Shown here: piece after piece, positions 9,912 to 60,740 of the stretch | Layout of the letters: every line of letters begins with the position of its first letter | Position numbering within the stretch: the stretch's first letter is position 1 | Source: Candidatus Melainabacteria bacterium SSGW_16 | Lineage (GTDB): Bacteria > Cyanobacteriota > Vampirovibrionia > 2-02-FULL-35-15 | Assembly (NCBI GenBank): GCA_004769085.1 | Contig: DUDS01000044.1 | Location: 44,670-108,669 of the forward strand | DNA length: 64,000 bases | Direction of reading: 5' to 3' | Notes under the pieces: generated by a model | Seen by the model: the letters and a program-made list of their open reading frames with translations, nothing else | What the model was told of the DNA's origin: nothing | Databases searched by the model: none | Program-made: the position numbers and the translations under genes

Positions 9912-9981
9912 CCACCTAATTGTATGAAATTGCTTAACCCTCGGAGTAGTAATAATATAACAACAACCTCTTCTAAAGAAA

Positions 9982-10094
9982 GGTTTTGTTCAATTTATTT
10001 GACAAAACCTGTAACCCGTTAAATTTAGTCTATATTAAGTGGACTATGGAAAGGTGGCGAGTCTCATTATGAGCGAGCCACCTGAGTAAAAAAC
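9982..10094 (+). promoter_or_regulatory. GC-rich leader element, copy R1a, upstream of the 113-aa ORF. It has three parts: a hairpin GGUUUUGUC/GACAAAACC at 9982-10009, then CCUGUAAC...AUAUUAAGUGG, then UAUGGAAAGGUGGCG...GCCACCUGAGUAAAAAA containing a 6-codon mini-ORF.
   Basis: Near-identical to the copy at 60490-60534 on the other strand. The mini-ORF ATGAGCGAGCCACCTGAGTAA spans 10069-10089. This is a GC island in AT-rich intergenic DNA. Confidence 0.6.
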
Positions 10095-10216: not shown

Positions 10217-10558
10217 ATGGATCCAAATCAATCCATACAAAATAATAAGCTAAAAATAGACTCATTTGAGCTGCTAATAAAATTTTTACAAAAATGTAAA
10301 AGCGACTCTGAAGCAAATGAATCCAGGGCATCAATGATTTCATCCTGTGCGGATATTATTGCTGCAGCATATTACTACAGAAAATTCCCAATTGTAAATG
10401 ACTTCATAGAGAAGTATCTTAAAAACGAAGAAAATTATTTTTATCTCCAATGGGCAAGATCAACATGGTCAAAATTTGGCAAAATGACTGATGCTGAATT
10501 AAGTGATCTTGTTATAAATCAAATTCTTACCATTGATAATTTTGAAGAAGACGAATAG
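10217..10558 (+). CDS. Hypothetical small protein (113 aa).
   Basis: ORF with a purine-rich AAGGAAGAGAAAGG tract upstream. No recognised domain. Confidence 0.5.
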   Translation: MDPNQSIQNNKLKIDSFELLIKFLQKCKSDSEANESRASMISSCADIIAAAYYYRKFPIVNDFIEKYLKNEENYFYLQWARSTWSKFGKMTDAELSDLVINQILTIDNFEEDE

Positions 10559-18479: not shown

Positions 18480-18612
18480 AACAACCTAAATACTTTAACA
18501 ATCTTTAAAAAGTCTTTCTACAGCATTGATGTAATGTAATATATTATATTAATCATGCAACGCAACTACTCAGCTACCACAATAATCTATTAGTAAACAG
18601 TCAACATGGAAA

Positions 18613-18719
18613 GGTTTTGACGATTCATTCGTCAAAACCTGTATAATATTACAAGTGGCAGACCGTGAGCACTTTGCAAAGCCGACAAGCGAAGAATGAG
18701 CGAGGAAGGCGGTGAGTAA
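18613..18719 (+). promoter_or_regulatory. GC-rich leader element, copy R2a, upstream of the aldolase-like gene. It contains, in order: a hairpin GGUUUUGACG-AUUCAUU-CGUCAAAACC; an extended -10-like TGTATAAT; AUUACAAGUGG; then UUUGCAAAGCC...GCGAAGAAUGAGCGAGGAAGGCGGUGAGUAA.
   Basis: The hairpin spans 18613-18639. A possible sigma-70 promoter is TTGACG (18617-18622), a 19-nt spacer, then TG-TATAAT (18640-18647). The mini-ORF ATGAGCGAGGAAGGCGGTGAGTAA (18696-18719) ends 5 nt before the main ATG. The element is paralogous to 34723-34833 on the minus strand. Confidence 0.6.
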
Positions 18720-18724
18720 TTACC

Positions 18725-19648
18725 ATGCAACAAATAACAGAACACTCTTCTGAAACAAAATGCAGAGAAGATTTAACTAAGGTCTGTAACCTTTTATATA
18801 TAAAGGGCCTGATTTCCGGGTTTGATGGAAACATAAGTTTAAAGTCTGATGAAAGAACAATTCTTATCACACCTTTAAACACACATAAAGGGTTAATAAA
18901 ACCTGAGCAATTCACAAAAGTAGATATTAGCGGAGAAATCATATCAGGTGGAAAACCATCCTCAGAACTTGACATTCATCTTGAAGCATATAAAAAAAGA
19001 CCTGATATAAACGCAATTATTCATGCACACCCCCCAACACTTATTTCACTTACTGTAAGCGGAATGAACCTGGATGAGCCTTTAATTCCTGATGTTATTA
19101 ATAATCTTGGCAGTATACCAACAGTACCTTACCCTGGGACAGATAAAGAAAAAGAAAAATCACTTATAGTATCAAGTTTAGAAAATCATGATGCAATTAT
19201 TCTGGAACGTCACGGTGCAGTTACAGTAGGAAGTGATATTTACAGAGCTTTGCACTATACAGAGTTGCTTGAATTTGCTGCAAAGATCATGTTCAATGCA
19301 AAGATTGCTGGTGAGATTTTTCCACTTGATAAATCACAAATAAAAGAAATTTTAAATGAAAGAGAGAAAGCCTGTGGCAGAAATATTGATACAAAATCAG
19401 AATTAAATAATTACTGTAAACATAAAAATAAATTTAATTTAAAGAATCTATTTGCAAAATTATTTGAAGGAAACTCACTGGTATTTCAGAGAATTCTATG
19501 TCTTATAAATGAACTTAATCTGTCAGTCATTTCAAGGACAAGCTATGCAAGTAAACTTACCCATCTGGAAAGAGAAGAATTATCGAGAGAACTGACAGCC
19601 TCATTTATTGGAATGCTGATTGGAAGATTTACAGGTAAAAAGCTTTAA
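18725..19648 (+). CDS. Class II aldolase/adducin-family protein (MtnB/fuculose-phosphate-aldolase-like) with an about 100-aa C-terminal extension.
   Basis: The metal-binding pattern of the aldolase II fold (E...H.H ... IIHAHPP ... ERHGAVTVG) is recognisable in the first 210 aa. Confidence 0.6.
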   Translation: MQQITEHSSETKCREDLTKVCNLLYIKGLISGFDGNISLKSDERTILITPLNTHKGLIKPEQFTKVDISGEIISGGKPSSELDIHLEAYKKRPDINAIIHAHPPTLISLTVSGMNLDEPLIPDVINNLGSIPTVPYPGTDKEKEKSLIVSSLENHDAIILERHGAVTVGSDIYRALHYTELLEFAAKIMFNAKIAGEIFPLDKSQIKEILNEREKACGRNIDTKSELNNYCKHKNKFNLKNLFAKLFEGNSLVFQRILCLINELNLSVISRTSYASKLTHLEREELSRELTASFIGMLIGRFTGKKL

Positions 19649-28892: not shown

Positions 28893-29030
28893 GTGTGTAA
28901 ACAAACCACAGATGACTTAAGTAAGCTCATTTACCCATCAGGCTGAGCGACGAAGGGTGGTCCGTCAGTTCTTGGATAGAGGAGCGAAGCCGGATGCAGG
29001 TAAATGGGCTTACCCTTAAAGAATTTACAC
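28893..29030. promoter_or_regulatory. Conserved GC-rich structured element R3a in the 5' region of purC-purS. It is paralogous to 41937-42058.
   Basis: Nested inverted repeats: GTGTAAA/TTTACAC, CTTAAGTAAGC/GCTTACCCTTAAAG and CATTTACC/GGTAAATG. The core CCCATCAGGCTGAGCGACGAAGGG..TCCGTCAGTTCTTGGATAGAGGAGCGAAGCCGGATGCAGG is shared with the second copy. Confidence 0.6.
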
Positions 29031-34719: not shown

Positions 34720-34722
34720 TTT

Positions 34723-34833
34723 TTACCTACCGCCTTTCTCGCTCATTCTTCGCTTGTCAGGCTTTGCAATGTGCACTTAAAAGATACCTCTTTTCACACC
34801 TTTCAGATTTTACCGAATGAATCGGATAAAATC
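34723..34833 (-). promoter_or_regulatory. GC-rich leader element, copy R2b, directly upstream of nuoA. It has a hairpin GAUUUUAUCCG-AUUCAUU-CGGUAAAAUC, then UUUUAAGUGCACAUUGCAAAGCC, then GCGAAGAAUGAGCGAGAAAGGCGGUAGGUAA.
   Basis: The mini-ORF ATGAGCGAGAAAGGCGGTAGGTAA (34746-34723) stops 3 nt before the nuoA ATG. The hairpin stems differ from copy R2a but keep pairing, and the loop is identical. Confidence 0.6.
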
Positions 34834-34908
34834 TTCCTGCATAAATAGTCAAACCTGATATTGTTACCTAACCAGGTAGTAACAACAATTAATTTATATC
34901 ATACCTTA

Positions 34909-40813: not shown

Positions 40814-41959
40814 TTAGAATCCTAAGATCTTAGCAATCTTATCAATATCTGCTTCAACTTCATGTTCAGCAGTACCTGCATATTTAATAGCAGAATCAGG
40901 ATCTTTTAAACCATTACCAGTTAAGACGCAAACTACGGTTGATTCAGGAGCAATTTTTTTTGCTTTTGCACTTTTAATTAATCCAGCAACAGATGCAGCA
41001 CTAGCAGGTTCACATGCAACACCCTCCATTTGATGAAGGATTTTATATGATTCTATAATTTCCTCGTCTGTTACTACATCTATAAAGCCACCTGAATCTT
41101 TAGATGCCTGAACTGCCTGTTTCCAGCTGGCAGGATTTCCTATCCTGATTGCAGTAGCAATTGTTTCTGGTTTCTCAATAATTTTATTCTGAACAATTGG
41201 CGCTGCACCACTTGCTTCAAAACCAATCATCCTGGGTTTATCTTCTTTTATATATTCACAAAAACCTTTCCAGTAAGCAGTAATATTTCCTGCATTACCA
41301 ACAGGAATAGAAAGTATGTCAGGAGATCTGCCAAGCTGCTCACAAACTTCAAACGCTGCTGTTTTCTGTCCTTCTATTCTGAAGGGATTTAATGAGTTAA
41401 CCAGTGTCACTGGATATTTACTAACAATTTCTTTTACTAGTTTTAATGCTTCATCAAAATTACCTTTTACTTGAATTACTTTTGCACCATAAATCATTGC
41501 CTGAGATAGTTTACCTAAAGCAACATATCCTTTTGGTACAAGAACAAAACATTCCATCTTAAAACCATTTGCTCTTGCCCTGGCTGCATATGCAGCTGCA
41601 CTGGCACTGGTATTTCCTGTGCTTGCACAAATTATTGCTTGTGATTTTTCTTCTACTGCTTTACTTATTGCAACAGTCATTCCACGATCTTTAAAACTTC
41701 CTGTTGGATTTGCACCTTCTACTTTTAAATATACAGACAATCCTGGCACACCACATAATTTTGAAATATGGGATGCAAATACAAGCGGTGTATTTCCTTC
41801 ATTTAAAGTAACTATTGGTGTTTTGTTTGTGATAGGCAAATATGTCTGATAACAGTCAATTATGCCATTCCATGGCTGTGTAAAAATTGTGGATTTGGAT
41901 ATCACAAAGAAATATTTTAGCAGACTGGGCATGGATGAGCATTTAATGTGTGAGCCCAT
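40814..41959 (-). CDS. thrC: Threonine synthase (short, Bacillus-type). The annotated 5' end runs into the R3b element, so the real start is probably internal and may be non-ATG.
   Basis: [31 protein letters not shown] followed by the PLP-lysine [12 protein letters not shown] motif. Confidence 0.85.
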
Positions 41960-42058
41960 TTACCTACATCGGTCTTCGCTCCTCTATCCAAGAACTGACG
42001 GACCCTTCGTCGCTCAGCCTGATGGGTAAACGGCCTCACTTGTAATTTGTTTACACCC
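41937..42058. promoter_or_regulatory. Conserved GC-rich structured element R3b between the divergent thrC and purQ. It is paralogous to 28893-29030.
   Basis: It shares an about 80-nt core with R3a. The closing helix GUGAGCC-CAUUUACC ... GGUAAA-C-GGCCUCAC covaries relative to R3a (GUAAGC/GCUUAC becomes GAGCC/GGCCUC). The 3' tail UUUGUUUACAC.CC is conserved in purQ/purC sense. Confidence 0.6.
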
Positions 42059-42065
42059 CTTAAAA

Positions 42066-42767
42066 ATGCTAAAATTAAACTGTATGAAATTCTCAGTAAT
42101 AATATTTCCAGGTTCAAACTGCGATGAAGACTGTATTCATGTGCTAAAAAATGTGCTCGGTCAGGAAGTAAATAAAGTTTTTCATACTGAAGAAAAGCTC
42201 CTAAAGACAGACTGTGTAGTTATACCAGGAGGATTCAGCTATGGCGATTATCTAAGATCAGGAGCTATAGCCAGGTTTTCAAATATTATTAATCCAATAA
42301 TAGATTTTGCTAACAAGGGCGGCTTAGTAATTGGTACTTGTAACGGTTTTCAAATTTTGTGTGAGGCAGGGTTATTACCTGGTGCGCTCACAACCAATAA
42401 ATCTCTAAGTTTTATTTGCGATGAAGTGTATCTTAAAATATCAAACAGTAAAACAAAATTTACAAGTGAATACAGAAATAATGAAATAATCAGACTACCA
42501 ATAGCGCATGGAGATGGACGTTATATTACAAAAGATTTAAACAAAGAACAAATCATATTTCAGTACTGCAGCAAAGATGGAATTATCAATGATAATTTTA
42601 ATCCGAACGGATCTACTGAGAATATTGCAGGAATAATAAATAAAAAAGGGAACGTGCTTGGAATGATGCCACATCCTGAAAGAGCATGTGAATCCATATT
42701 AGGGAATGAAGATGGAAAAAAACTATTTGCAAGTCTAATTAGCTCATCTATTGCCCTTGTACATTAA
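42066..42767 (+). CDS. purQ: Phosphoribosylformylglycinamidine synthase subunit PurQ (glutaminase).
   Basis: 233 aa. [14 protein letters not shown], the catalytic GTCNGFQIL cysteine motif, and the C-terminal MMPHPER. Confidence 0.9.
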
Positions 42768-44133
42768 AGAACAGATTTTTTTCAATTTGAATGTTATTGG
42801 CATATTTTGCTTTTGCAAGATTTACAGCAGCTTCTGTATTGAGAAGTCCATTACCAAACACAAAATCTTTTCCTGGCTCTCCTAAATCTTCTGCAGACTG
42901 AAACAGTATTTGCCTGACATCCTCAGAAGAAATATCCGGAGCAACAGACCAAATTAATGCTGCTGTTCCAGCTACCTGTGGAGCAGCAAATGATGTTCCT
43001 GAAACTGAGGAATACCCTGAATAAAGTGAAGTGGTATAAATAGATGCTCCAGGTGCTACAAGGGAAACATGATCTCCCAGGGTACTATATGATTCAATTT
43101 TCTTACTGGAATTTACTGCACCAACACCTATAACACCTTCAAATGCTGCCGGGTACCTAACTTCTCTCTCACCTGTATTTCCCGCAGTGGATATAATGAG
43201 TATCCCTCTTTCATTTGCTTCCTGAACTGAATCTTTCAAAACCTGTGAGAACTGACTTGTACTTAAGCTGATTTGTACAATTTTAACTCCTTCAGTATAT
43301 GTACGGTCTAACGCTTCAACCACTGTTGAAACCCTGGCCTGACCATACTCATCTGTTACCTTTATAGGTAATATTTTTGTATTCCATGAAACTCCAGCTA
43401 TACCCTGTTTATTATTTGTATTTGCTGCTATTATTCCGGATACTTCAGTTCCATGACCGATAGCATCGTTTTTGTCTTCCGGTAGAAGATTTTCACTCCC
43501 AAATATTTTTCCTTCCAAATCAGGGTGATTAGCATCAACGCCTGTATCCAGCACACCAACTACCAGCGAATTGCCTTTTGTTGTACCCCATGCTTTTGGT
43601 GCATTTATTTGTCTTAAATAGTATTGGGATGAAAAGTCACTGTCATTTGGTGTTATTTCAAGTTGATCATTCAAAACATCTCCCTCTTTTATATCATTTA
43701 CATTTTCTGCAATGTTGTTACTTTCTCCCTGTGCATTTTCATCTCTTATATTTATCTTTATGTAATTTCTCTCGTCAGAAATCTCATCCAGATAAAATTT
43801 ATAATCAGGTTCTACTGTTTTAAACAAACCGCTATTTTTTAATTCCTGTATCTTAGCAACTTTATCTTCTGAGCTGCTTAAAGGAATAACAAAGAGATTA
43901 CTTTTTACTTTTCTGTAACCAACAATTCCTGCTCTGTACATAAGCCTGTCAAGTCTCCTTCCTCGTTGAGCTTCACTAGAAGGAACAACAATCAATGAAT
44001 CATAATCATCTTCAGAATTTTCTTTTGCACTAACAGCTGAAAAACCAGGTAAAAAAGAAAAAGCAAGAAGTAAAAAGCACATTAATACCCTTAGTGCCTG
44101 TAACTTCCTGCCTGTTACTTTGTAATTTGTCAT
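42748..44133 (-). CDS. Secreted S8-family (subtilisin-like) serine peptidase.
   Basis: Catalytic triad motifs [17 protein letters not shown] and [11 protein letters not shown]. Signal peptide after the [25 protein letters not shown] start. The table's start at 44190 lies inside a GC-rich leader. Confidence 0.85.
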
Positions 44134-44260
44134 TGTTTTGATTCGGTAACCCAGCTGCCCGTTCCGGGCCTGTAGCTTTGCGTCCTGCAATTCCTTGCAG
44201 TTTGCCCTTTCGTCAAAGGCTTAAAAATTAAGCCAAAAAAAACAAAAGTTACTTAAAGTA
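44134..44260 (-). promoter_or_regulatory. GC-rich structured 5' leader of the S8 peptidase gene.
   Basis: In gene sense it shows three hairpins: GGCUUAAUUUUUAAGCC, CUGCAA-GGAA-UUGCAG (GNRA-like loop), and GCCCG-GAA-CGGGC. It is purine-rich with GCAAAGC and GACGAAAGGG motifs shared with the other leaders. Confidence 0.45.
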
Positions 44261-60458: not shown

Positions 60459-60489
60459 AAATTAATTAATTTAATTCTCAAATATTTTT

Positions 60490-60595
60490 TTACTCAGGTG
60501 GCTTGCTCATAATTCGCTGCGCCACCTTTCCATACTACTCCTGGTAAACCAAATCCTCCACAATTCAGGTTTTGCGGAATGAATCGGTCAAAACC
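60490..60595 (-). promoter_or_regulatory. GC-rich leader element, copy R1b, upstream of the 1203-aa ORF: a hairpin GGUUUUGACCG-AUUCAUU-CCGCAAAACC followed by the UAUGGAAAGGUGGCG...GCCACCUGAGUAAAAAAA module.
   Basis: In minus sense it reads tatggaaaggtggcgcagcgaattatgagcaagccacctgagtaaaaaaa, which matches 10045-10094 with the differences concentrated in the hairpin loop. The mini-ORF ATGAGCAAGCCACCTGAGTAA spans 60510-60490. Confidence 0.6.
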
Positions 60596-60740
60596 TTCTC
60601 TAATTAATTAGTTTATTTTAATTACCATCGACATAACTGAGTAATTATTTAAAACATTAAACTCAAAACATTCTATATCCTGTTATAAATTAAAATGTTA
60701 AAAACGAATCACACATTAGAAAGAGCAATAAAGATTAAAT

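Follow-up and report, generated by a model that had tools for sequence, protein, structure and literature searches.

The 50-base module at 10045–10094 of the 64,000-nucleotide stretch of DNA analysed here (the window) is, with a probability that we put at roughly 90%, the right-hand end of a non-coding MITE of about 163 bp. An earlier note on this DNA had treated the ~50 nt as a unit in itself; they correspond to one hairpin (P3) plus the right terminal repeat of an element that measures 162–165 bp between its target duplications. The note's broader reading, of a mobile cassette, is borne out by the target duplications of 8 bp, the inverted repeats at the termini, a copy number above 100 and orthologous sites that are empty. 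Assignment as a MITE follows from this combination of terminal inverted repeats, a duplication of fixed length, small size, lack of coding content, many copies and insertion polymorphism. The kind of element is itself well known; what is described as new is a MITE family in groundwater Melainabacteria.

The starting observation, two near-identical stretches on opposite strands, is real: a repeat search of the window returns 10045–10093 (+) and 60486–60534 (−) as an inverted pair of 49 nt, 88% complementary. The inner segment said to diverge between them does so (GAGTCTCATT in the first, GCAGCGAATT in the second), and both forms recur elsewhere as subfamily variants. The count of two falls short, as the window holds four copies. 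It contains further inverted pairs (18684–18719 with 34723–34758; 18609–18644 with 60563–60598) and a further direct repeat (34797–34836 with 60559–60598). A pattern of three blocks (AAAAYCTG, TGSAAAG and ATGAGCRAG) has exactly four sites in the window and none in 100 shuffles, and an nhmmer search with the family profile gives exactly four matches within it. The sequence ATGGAAAGGT, which had been placed immediately 5′ of a hairpin at the aldolase gene, is indeed present at 18606–18615; the hairpin that it precedes there is a different one (P1), belonging to another copy, and the 10-mer has four exact sites in the window, one of them intragenic.

Copy A (about 9947–10094, + strand; type 1, GAGTCTCATT variant; nhmmer E 2.6e-16, model positions 16–160) has 10045–10094 as its right end and lies 123 nt upstream of a 113-aa ORF that begins at 10217. 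On the same strand it carries hairpin P1 (GGUUUUG...CAAAACC, 9982–10009), hairpin P3 (10053–10082; GGUGGC at 10053–10058 paired with GCCACC at 10077–10082, the loop including AUGAGCGAG) and a mini-ORF, MSEPPE* (10069–10089). Its left terminal repeat and target duplication are degenerate, the best flank match being 6/8. At 9940–9960, where the left repeat is expected, CTCGGAGTAGTAATAA looks by eye like the repeat of a right end (cf. CCGGAGTAAAAAC); a possible reading is a truncated copy A beside the remnant of another copy. Copy B (60486–60648, − strand; type 1, about 163 bp; nhmmer E 2.4e-23, model positions 3–160) supplies the second of the two original sites with its right end, about 28 nt upstream of a 1203-aa ORF (ATG 60458). 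Its P1 occupies 60568–60595 (−), its P3 stem pairs 60521–60526 with 60497–60502 (−), its mini-ORF, MSKPPE*, spans 60490–60510 (−), and its flanks match at 7/8 with slightly shifted boundaries. Copies A and B, which have no clean duplications (6/8 and 7/8), could be old.

The other two copies lie directly against genes. Copy C (18562–18723, + strand; 162 bp; nhmmer E 8.3e-38, model positions 2–162) runs from left repeat GCAACTACTCA to right repeat TGAGTAATTAC, with P1 at 18613–18639 (+), a P3 stem in which GCC at 18681–18683 pairs with GGC at 18708–18710 (+), and a mini-ORF at 18696–18719 (+). It is bracketed by an 8-bp target-site duplication, CATGCAAC, at 18554–18561 (+) and 18724–18731 (+), matching at 8/8; the right-hand duplicate carries the start codon of a class II aldolase gene (ATG 18725). 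Copy D (34720–34883, − strand; type 2, 164 bp; nhmmer E 1.3e-36, model positions 1–161) has left repeat GTTACTACCTG and a right end, GGTAGGTAAAAAA, that abuts the nuoA start codon (ATG 34719); P1 lies at 34806–34833 (−), the P3 region at 34730–34762 (−) and the mini-ORF at 34723–34746 (−), and the target duplication has decayed to 5/8.

The boundaries of the element are sharp. When 99 copies were aligned together with their flanks, similarity sets in at GTTACTGCCTAGC (type 2) or GTAACTACTCACC (type 1) and stops at TAGGCAATAAC or TGAGTAAAAAC, respectively. The terminal inverted repeats, of about 11 nt, read GTTACTGCCTA...TAGGCAATAAC in type 2 and GTAACTACTCA...TGAGTAAAAAC in type 1; the two ends are mutually reverse-complementary and covary between subfamilies (one pair, for example, is CG in 35 copies and UA in 34). 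The interior is made of three local hairpins: P1 (GRUUUUR...YAAAAYC with an inner CCG/CGG stem), P2, which varies in sequence and length, and P3, which has a UGSAAAG block on its 5′ side and, in the main subfamilies, a loop with GCGAAnnAUGAGCRAG. Nothing is encoded beyond a mini-ORF of 6–8 codons, so the element has no coding capacity for a transposase. Rfam gave zero matches at the element, whether the window was searched at gathering score or with E up to 10, and a focused scan of copy C likewise gave none. Inside the element there is no conserved sigma-70-type promoter; the sole match lies upstream of copy C, outside it. A pseudoknot between the P1 loop (AUUYAYU) and AAUGAG was considered and dropped, as the loop varies with no change in its partner and other tips (UCCGCC...GGCGGA) substitute for it.

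Transposition with an 8-bp duplication is documented in two ways. First, the flanking target duplications that the earlier note had proposed to look for are present: direct duplications are perfect (8/8) in 30 of 98 copies as against 0.6% of controls, and a match of at least 7/8 is found in 52% of copies and 8.4% of controls. Boundaries in this test were confined to the terminal repeats (72 combinations), and the controls were chimeras of left and right flanks taken from different copies; a looser test with 2000 boundary combinations, in which controls reach 8/8 in 14%, was not used. Second, empty sites exist, found by rebuilding sites from the flanks and seeking them in the collected loci. 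Locus L023 (MAG nzgw192) has a single GGCTAACC and no element, and at the orthologous site L121 and L167 hold an element between GGTTAGCC and GGTTAACC, with flanks 89% identical; L027 and L102 also differ by presence and absence. For copy C the empty site is at locus L170, next to an aldolase ortholog (P0002, 84% identical) in the same uvrB–aldolase arrangement: the spacer, of 84 nt, has no element and one CATGCAGC, and reads ...gtaatatattaatCATGCAGCaaac (...taatCATGCAGCaaac).

A count of copies, likewise proposed in the earlier note, puts the family at more than 100 distinct members. Scanning one genome per species with the pattern gave 53 stretches, of which 33 come from five Candidatus Melainabacteria groundwater MAGs, every one with an upstream hairpin; MAG nzgw192 alone has at least 12 copies. 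The other 20, in scattered taxa, have no upstream hairpin and were set aside as chance matches. Groundwater metagenomes contributed at least 114 pattern stretches, several of them from the window's own sample, JGI 3300027815, where the window belongs to the 128-kb contig Ga0209726_10000182. Overall there are at least 109 unique cores, and the nhmmer profile has 142 matches in 1.25 Mb of collected loci. Most copies were gathered by a pattern that requires ATGAGCRAG and two other blocks, so the invariance of these blocks is by construction. The genes adjoining the copies are unrelated housekeeping genes: nuoA, aldolase, atpC, murA, lpxA, lpxC, dnaJ, hemL, acs, lexA and relA. The family has dispersed to dozens of sites per genome in a groundwater Melainabacteria clade of ~34% GC. 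In one MAG (JACOTS01), five contigs (L016, L020, L028, L032 and L006) start or end inside identical or near-identical copies, ~140 nt in; the identity of these copies indicates recent activity, and the contig breaks indicate that the family breaks short-read assemblies and that its copy number in MAGs is underestimated.

Position and orientation relative to genes are strongly polar. Of 98 copies, 35 have a co-oriented gene start no more than 10 nt from the right end, and 3 have a divergent start equally close to the left end (35 versus 3, p about 7e-8). Between two genes on the same strand, the forward orientation is seen in 33 copies and the reverse in 8 (p about 1e-4); the reverse insertions lie 13–135 nt from the downstream start, which leaves the gene's own upstream region intact. 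In divergent regions it is the right end that faces the start (median distance about 5 nt versus about 55 nt). Gene starts were assigned by a simple first-start rule, which inflates closeness on both sides and cannot create a left–right asymmetry. About 15 copies abut gene ends or occupy the spacers of convergent genes. Surviving copies sit in very short intergenic spacers, and the duplicated octamer often includes a neighbouring start and/or stop codon: ATG occurs within 10 of the 30 perfect duplications (well above expectation for AT-rich 8-mers, which a rough estimate puts at about one in ten), and some duplications are overlapping stop/start junctions of the ATGA or TAATG type, as in L125 and L136.

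Both terminal repeats offer an abutting gene nearly the same 11 nt, and the cause of the polarity must therefore lie further inside the element. We infer that the polarity most likely arises from selection. An insertion at a start codon would displace the gene's own upstream signals by about 170 nt, and the right end, with the P3 hairpin and an A-rich tail resembling a Shine–Dalgarno (SD) sequence, would then have to act as the new 5′ leader. Only the right end may be able to replace the displaced signals; insertions in the opposite orientation would be tolerated only at a greater distance from the start codon. The aldolase gene illustrates the kind of site involved. At the empty site (L170, coordinates 230–266) the ATG stands 7 nt past the end of a TAATAT box, which suggests that the gene was leaderless before the insertion. 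In the window itself (18517–18561), a promoter-like TCTACA-17-TATATT ends 9 nt before the duplicated ATG at 18555, and this ATG now opens a 12-codon ORF that enters the element.

The AAGGUGG tract, previously read as a perfect SD sequence ahead of the mini-ORF, is doubtful in that role. It is the 5′ strand of the covarying P3 stem and is present in type 1 only; the larger subfamily, type 2, has GCCC or GCCU at this position. Among the 53 window ORFs of at least 150 aa, SD-like motifs before the start are uncommon (GGAG 8%, AAGG 15%, GGAGG 0%), and the organism appears to rely mostly on SD-independent initiation. Upstream regions in the window are A/U-rich. The mini-ORF does not stand as a conserved feature either, its AUG being absent from four of six copies that were found without requiring the motif. 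Where present (6–8 codons in most copies) it terminates inside the right repeat, and for 3 of 33 copies its frame continues into that of the gene.

A more ambitious version of the MITE reading, which we offer tentatively, is that the element has also been co-opted as a portable translation leader: ribosomes would terminate on the mini-ORF and re-initiate on the abutting gene, replacing a lost coupling or leaderless start. The P3 loop would, on this speculative scheme, display the AUG, with peptides such as MSEPPE* and MSKEGGR* ending a few nucleotides before the gene's own AUG. Several observations are in keeping with it. The mini-ORF stops in the right repeat in all main subfamilies, 1–10 nt before the gene AUG in tight copies; insertions at L125 and L136 hit overlapping junctions and one hit the apparently leaderless aldolase start, where the TAATAT box of the empty site stands so close to the ATG; SD motifs are rare in the genome; and the lpxC reading frame of L027 has no available start other than the element's AUG. 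Against these, the AUG is mostly missing in copies on the same loci that were found without the motif requirement, L032b having TTGTAAGCGAG and L108b AGG instead of AUG. L126 and L094 have unrelated P3 hairpins, and of these at least L126 remains directly against a gene start. No SD precedes the AUG in the large type-2 subfamily, and an in-frame stop is weak evidence, since two of the three frames of the right repeat contain stops in any case. We therefore consider the leader reading improbable. Coupling through the mini-ORF might be an add-on in some subfamilies and not the nature of the element, although we would give this formulation only a minor chance of being right, and the same goes for the proposal that the MITE family succeeded through a structured translation-start module of its own (locally folding hairpins, a right end that is A-rich and SD-like and, for the main subfamilies, the mini-ORF with its stop in the terminal repeat). 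If it were true, insertion right on a start codon, even in a leaderless or translationally coupled gene and in a genome poor in SD sequences, could leave the gene expressed; the family would amount to a mobile ready-made 5′ UTR, rewiring the leaders of a few percent of genes in these Melainabacteria.

The hairpins are kept by compensatory changes. Across the family the P1 stem is 97.8% paired, with changes on both sides at 5 of 10 pairs, and its covariation score is reached by none of 500 shuffles; the P1 tip is replaceable by a different stem-loop. In type 1 all six P3 pairs form in all 30 copies, through eight stem variants (including GGUGGC/GCCACC, GCCGGU/GCCGGC, GACGGC/GCCGUC and GCUGGC/GCCAGC), and for type 2, C-G makes up the fourth P3 pair in 35 copies, with U-A taking its place in 28 and U-G in 3. 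Certain copies have wholly different, long P3 hairpins. Within the hairpins G-U pairs outnumber A-C mismatches by 29 to 8, an excess that points to selection on the sense-strand transcript; a transcription-linked mutation bias could also produce it, and the copies are related and not independent. The hairpins would act at the RNA level; their possible roles are in mRNA stability, in insulation of the start region and in transposition.

Such conservation could also belong to a structured cis-regulatory RNA, a riboswitch or protein-binding leader of a regulon, whose spread and flanking repeats were incidental. The sense orientation 5′ of genes fits, as do the covarying hairpins, the conserved single-stranded blocks (CUG, UGSAAAG and GCGAAnnAUGAGCRAG) and a predicted fold that is stabler than shuffles (z = −2.6). 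We nevertheless regard this as very unlikely. The downstream genes have no pathway in common, about 15 copies are placed at gene ends or between convergent genes, and the 8-bp duplications, terminal repeats and empty sites amount to transposition; moreover, the P1 tip and the entire P3 interior are replaceable, which leaves no conserved ligand pocket, and Rfam has no match even at E up to 10.

If the element is a MITE, as we conclude, it would be a non-autonomous cut- or copy-and-paste DNA transposon whose terminal repeats are bound by a DDE-type transposase supplied in trans, and insertion by an 8-bp staggered cut would yield the 8-bp direct duplications. Transposase family and mechanism are deduced from the repeats and the duplication. 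A partner was sought through repeat pairs 0.6–6 kb apart, multi-copy ORFs of at least 200 aa and ORFs between repeat pairs. The 1.25 Mb of collected loci held neither an autonomous element with matching terminal repeats nor a multi-copy transposase, and all candidates from these searches proved to be neighbouring MITEs or ordinary genes. A different route, as single-stranded DNA through an HUH transposase that recognizes the hairpins, would apply to a palindromic element of the REP/RAYT or IS200/IS605 type (PATE). Hairpins conserved in structure and not in sequence would suit such an element, and the asymmetry of G-U over A-C is compatible with a single-stranded intermediate of one strand. To our knowledge, however, REP/RAYT and IS200/IS605-type elements have no target duplication and no terminal inverted repeats, both of which are present here, and a tnpA or RAYT-like gene was not seen beside any copy; this origin seems to us highly improbable. 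The last possibility, that the copies are leftovers of a segmental duplication or of gene conversion between two intergenic regions, might be read from the 88% identity of the first two sites and would have suited the case that the earlier note held against mobility (only two copies, inside a segmental duplication), and can safely be dismissed: the census, which counts four copies in the 64-kb window and over 100 beyond it, refutes it, and similarity ends sharply at the terminal repeats, between unrelated flanks.

Among known systems, target duplications of 8 bp are also made by the IS66, IS1595, ISL3, IS256 and IS6 families, and the type-1 repeats start with GTAA, as IS66-family ends do according to ISfinder descriptions; in contrast to these families, no transposase gene with the element's ends was found in the 1.25 Mb of collected loci. 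Correia elements (NEMIS/CREE) of Neisseria have repeats of ~26 bp and a TA duplication, and ERIC elements are imperfect palindromes with a TA target. We know of no description of ERIC elements hugging start codons, a position typical of the Melainabacteria element. Likeness to the Correia elements lies in being short (about 100–160 bp in their case), non-coding, multicopy, bounded by terminal inverted repeats and mostly placed just upstream of genes. The Melainabacteria element differs in its ~11-nt repeats, its 8-bp duplication and its local hairpins in place of one long palindrome, as well as in having no conserved internal sigma-70-like promoter, no sequence similarity and a host from another phylum. 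With ERIC/IRU and YPAL it shares the character of an intergenic repeat with RNA structure, for which orientation to the neighbouring gene matters. Correia elements are co-transcribed with genes, whose expression they alter by means of promoters, IHF sites and RNase III cleavage (PMC10969869); the enterobacterial ERIC/IRU and YPAL repeats are intergenic and transcribed, with a stable RNA structure, and their orientation to the neighbouring gene affects mRNA fate (PMC10969869). By analogy, the element may work like Correia- and ERIC-type bacterial MITEs, co-transcribed with its neighbours and affecting their expression. MITEs are abundant in Cyanobacteria, whose median of about 55 per genome places them among the bacteria richest in such elements (PMC11602168). 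The cyanobacterial MITEs, among them Nezha (cited in PMC10969869), likewise belong to the cyanobacterial lineage; they are described from photosynthetic Cyanobacteria. A literature search returned no description of a Melainabacteria MITE, nor of MITEs set against start codons.

The window holds other structured elements. A second repeat family of ~100 nt has two copies, 89–90% identical, at 28919–29020 (−) and 41943–42041 (+), each a long imperfect hairpin (z = −4.8 and −2.7) with no Rfam match, one immediately 5′ of purC/purS, the other immediately 5′ of purQ. A purine riboswitch was considered for it and rejected, the repeat being absent from orthologs at 90% (purC/S) and 72–79% (purQ) identity: it is missing from L177 (90% identity), where the nuoD–purC spacer is 22 nt, and from L172 and L174–L176, where the purQ spacers are 0–77 nt, and is kept only in the 84% purQ relative L171. 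Most likely it is a further MITE-like insertion. The nuoD–purC junction of a 78%-identical relative (L178, 388–500) has a different palindromic insert (CATTGCGAGGAG...CTTCTCGCAATG), and across lineages this spacer seems to gather hairpin elements that are unrelated to one another. The window's only Rfam match is a c-di-GMP-I riboswitch at 44142–44216 (−), which scores 65.4 bits where the gathering score is 35. Its position is the 5′ end of a subtilase-family (Peptidase_S8) ORF, 42748–44190, whose listed TTG start overlaps the aptamer; the true start is thus probably further downstream.

Recognition of the family removes a false lead, in that a cassette which looks like a riboswitch, or like an SD sequence with a uORF, is the end of a transposon. 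Annotators of Melainabacteria MAGs gain a defined repeat family, including one that breaks assemblies. The most interesting trait of the element is its start-codon-hugging polarity, which makes it a natural experiment: one 163-bp sequence serves as the 5′ leader of dozens of unrelated housekeeping genes, under a strict orientation rule, in an SD-poor organism. If this polarity reflects the leader needs of SD-independent initiation, comparing tolerated with non-tolerated insertions could reveal what such initiation requires.
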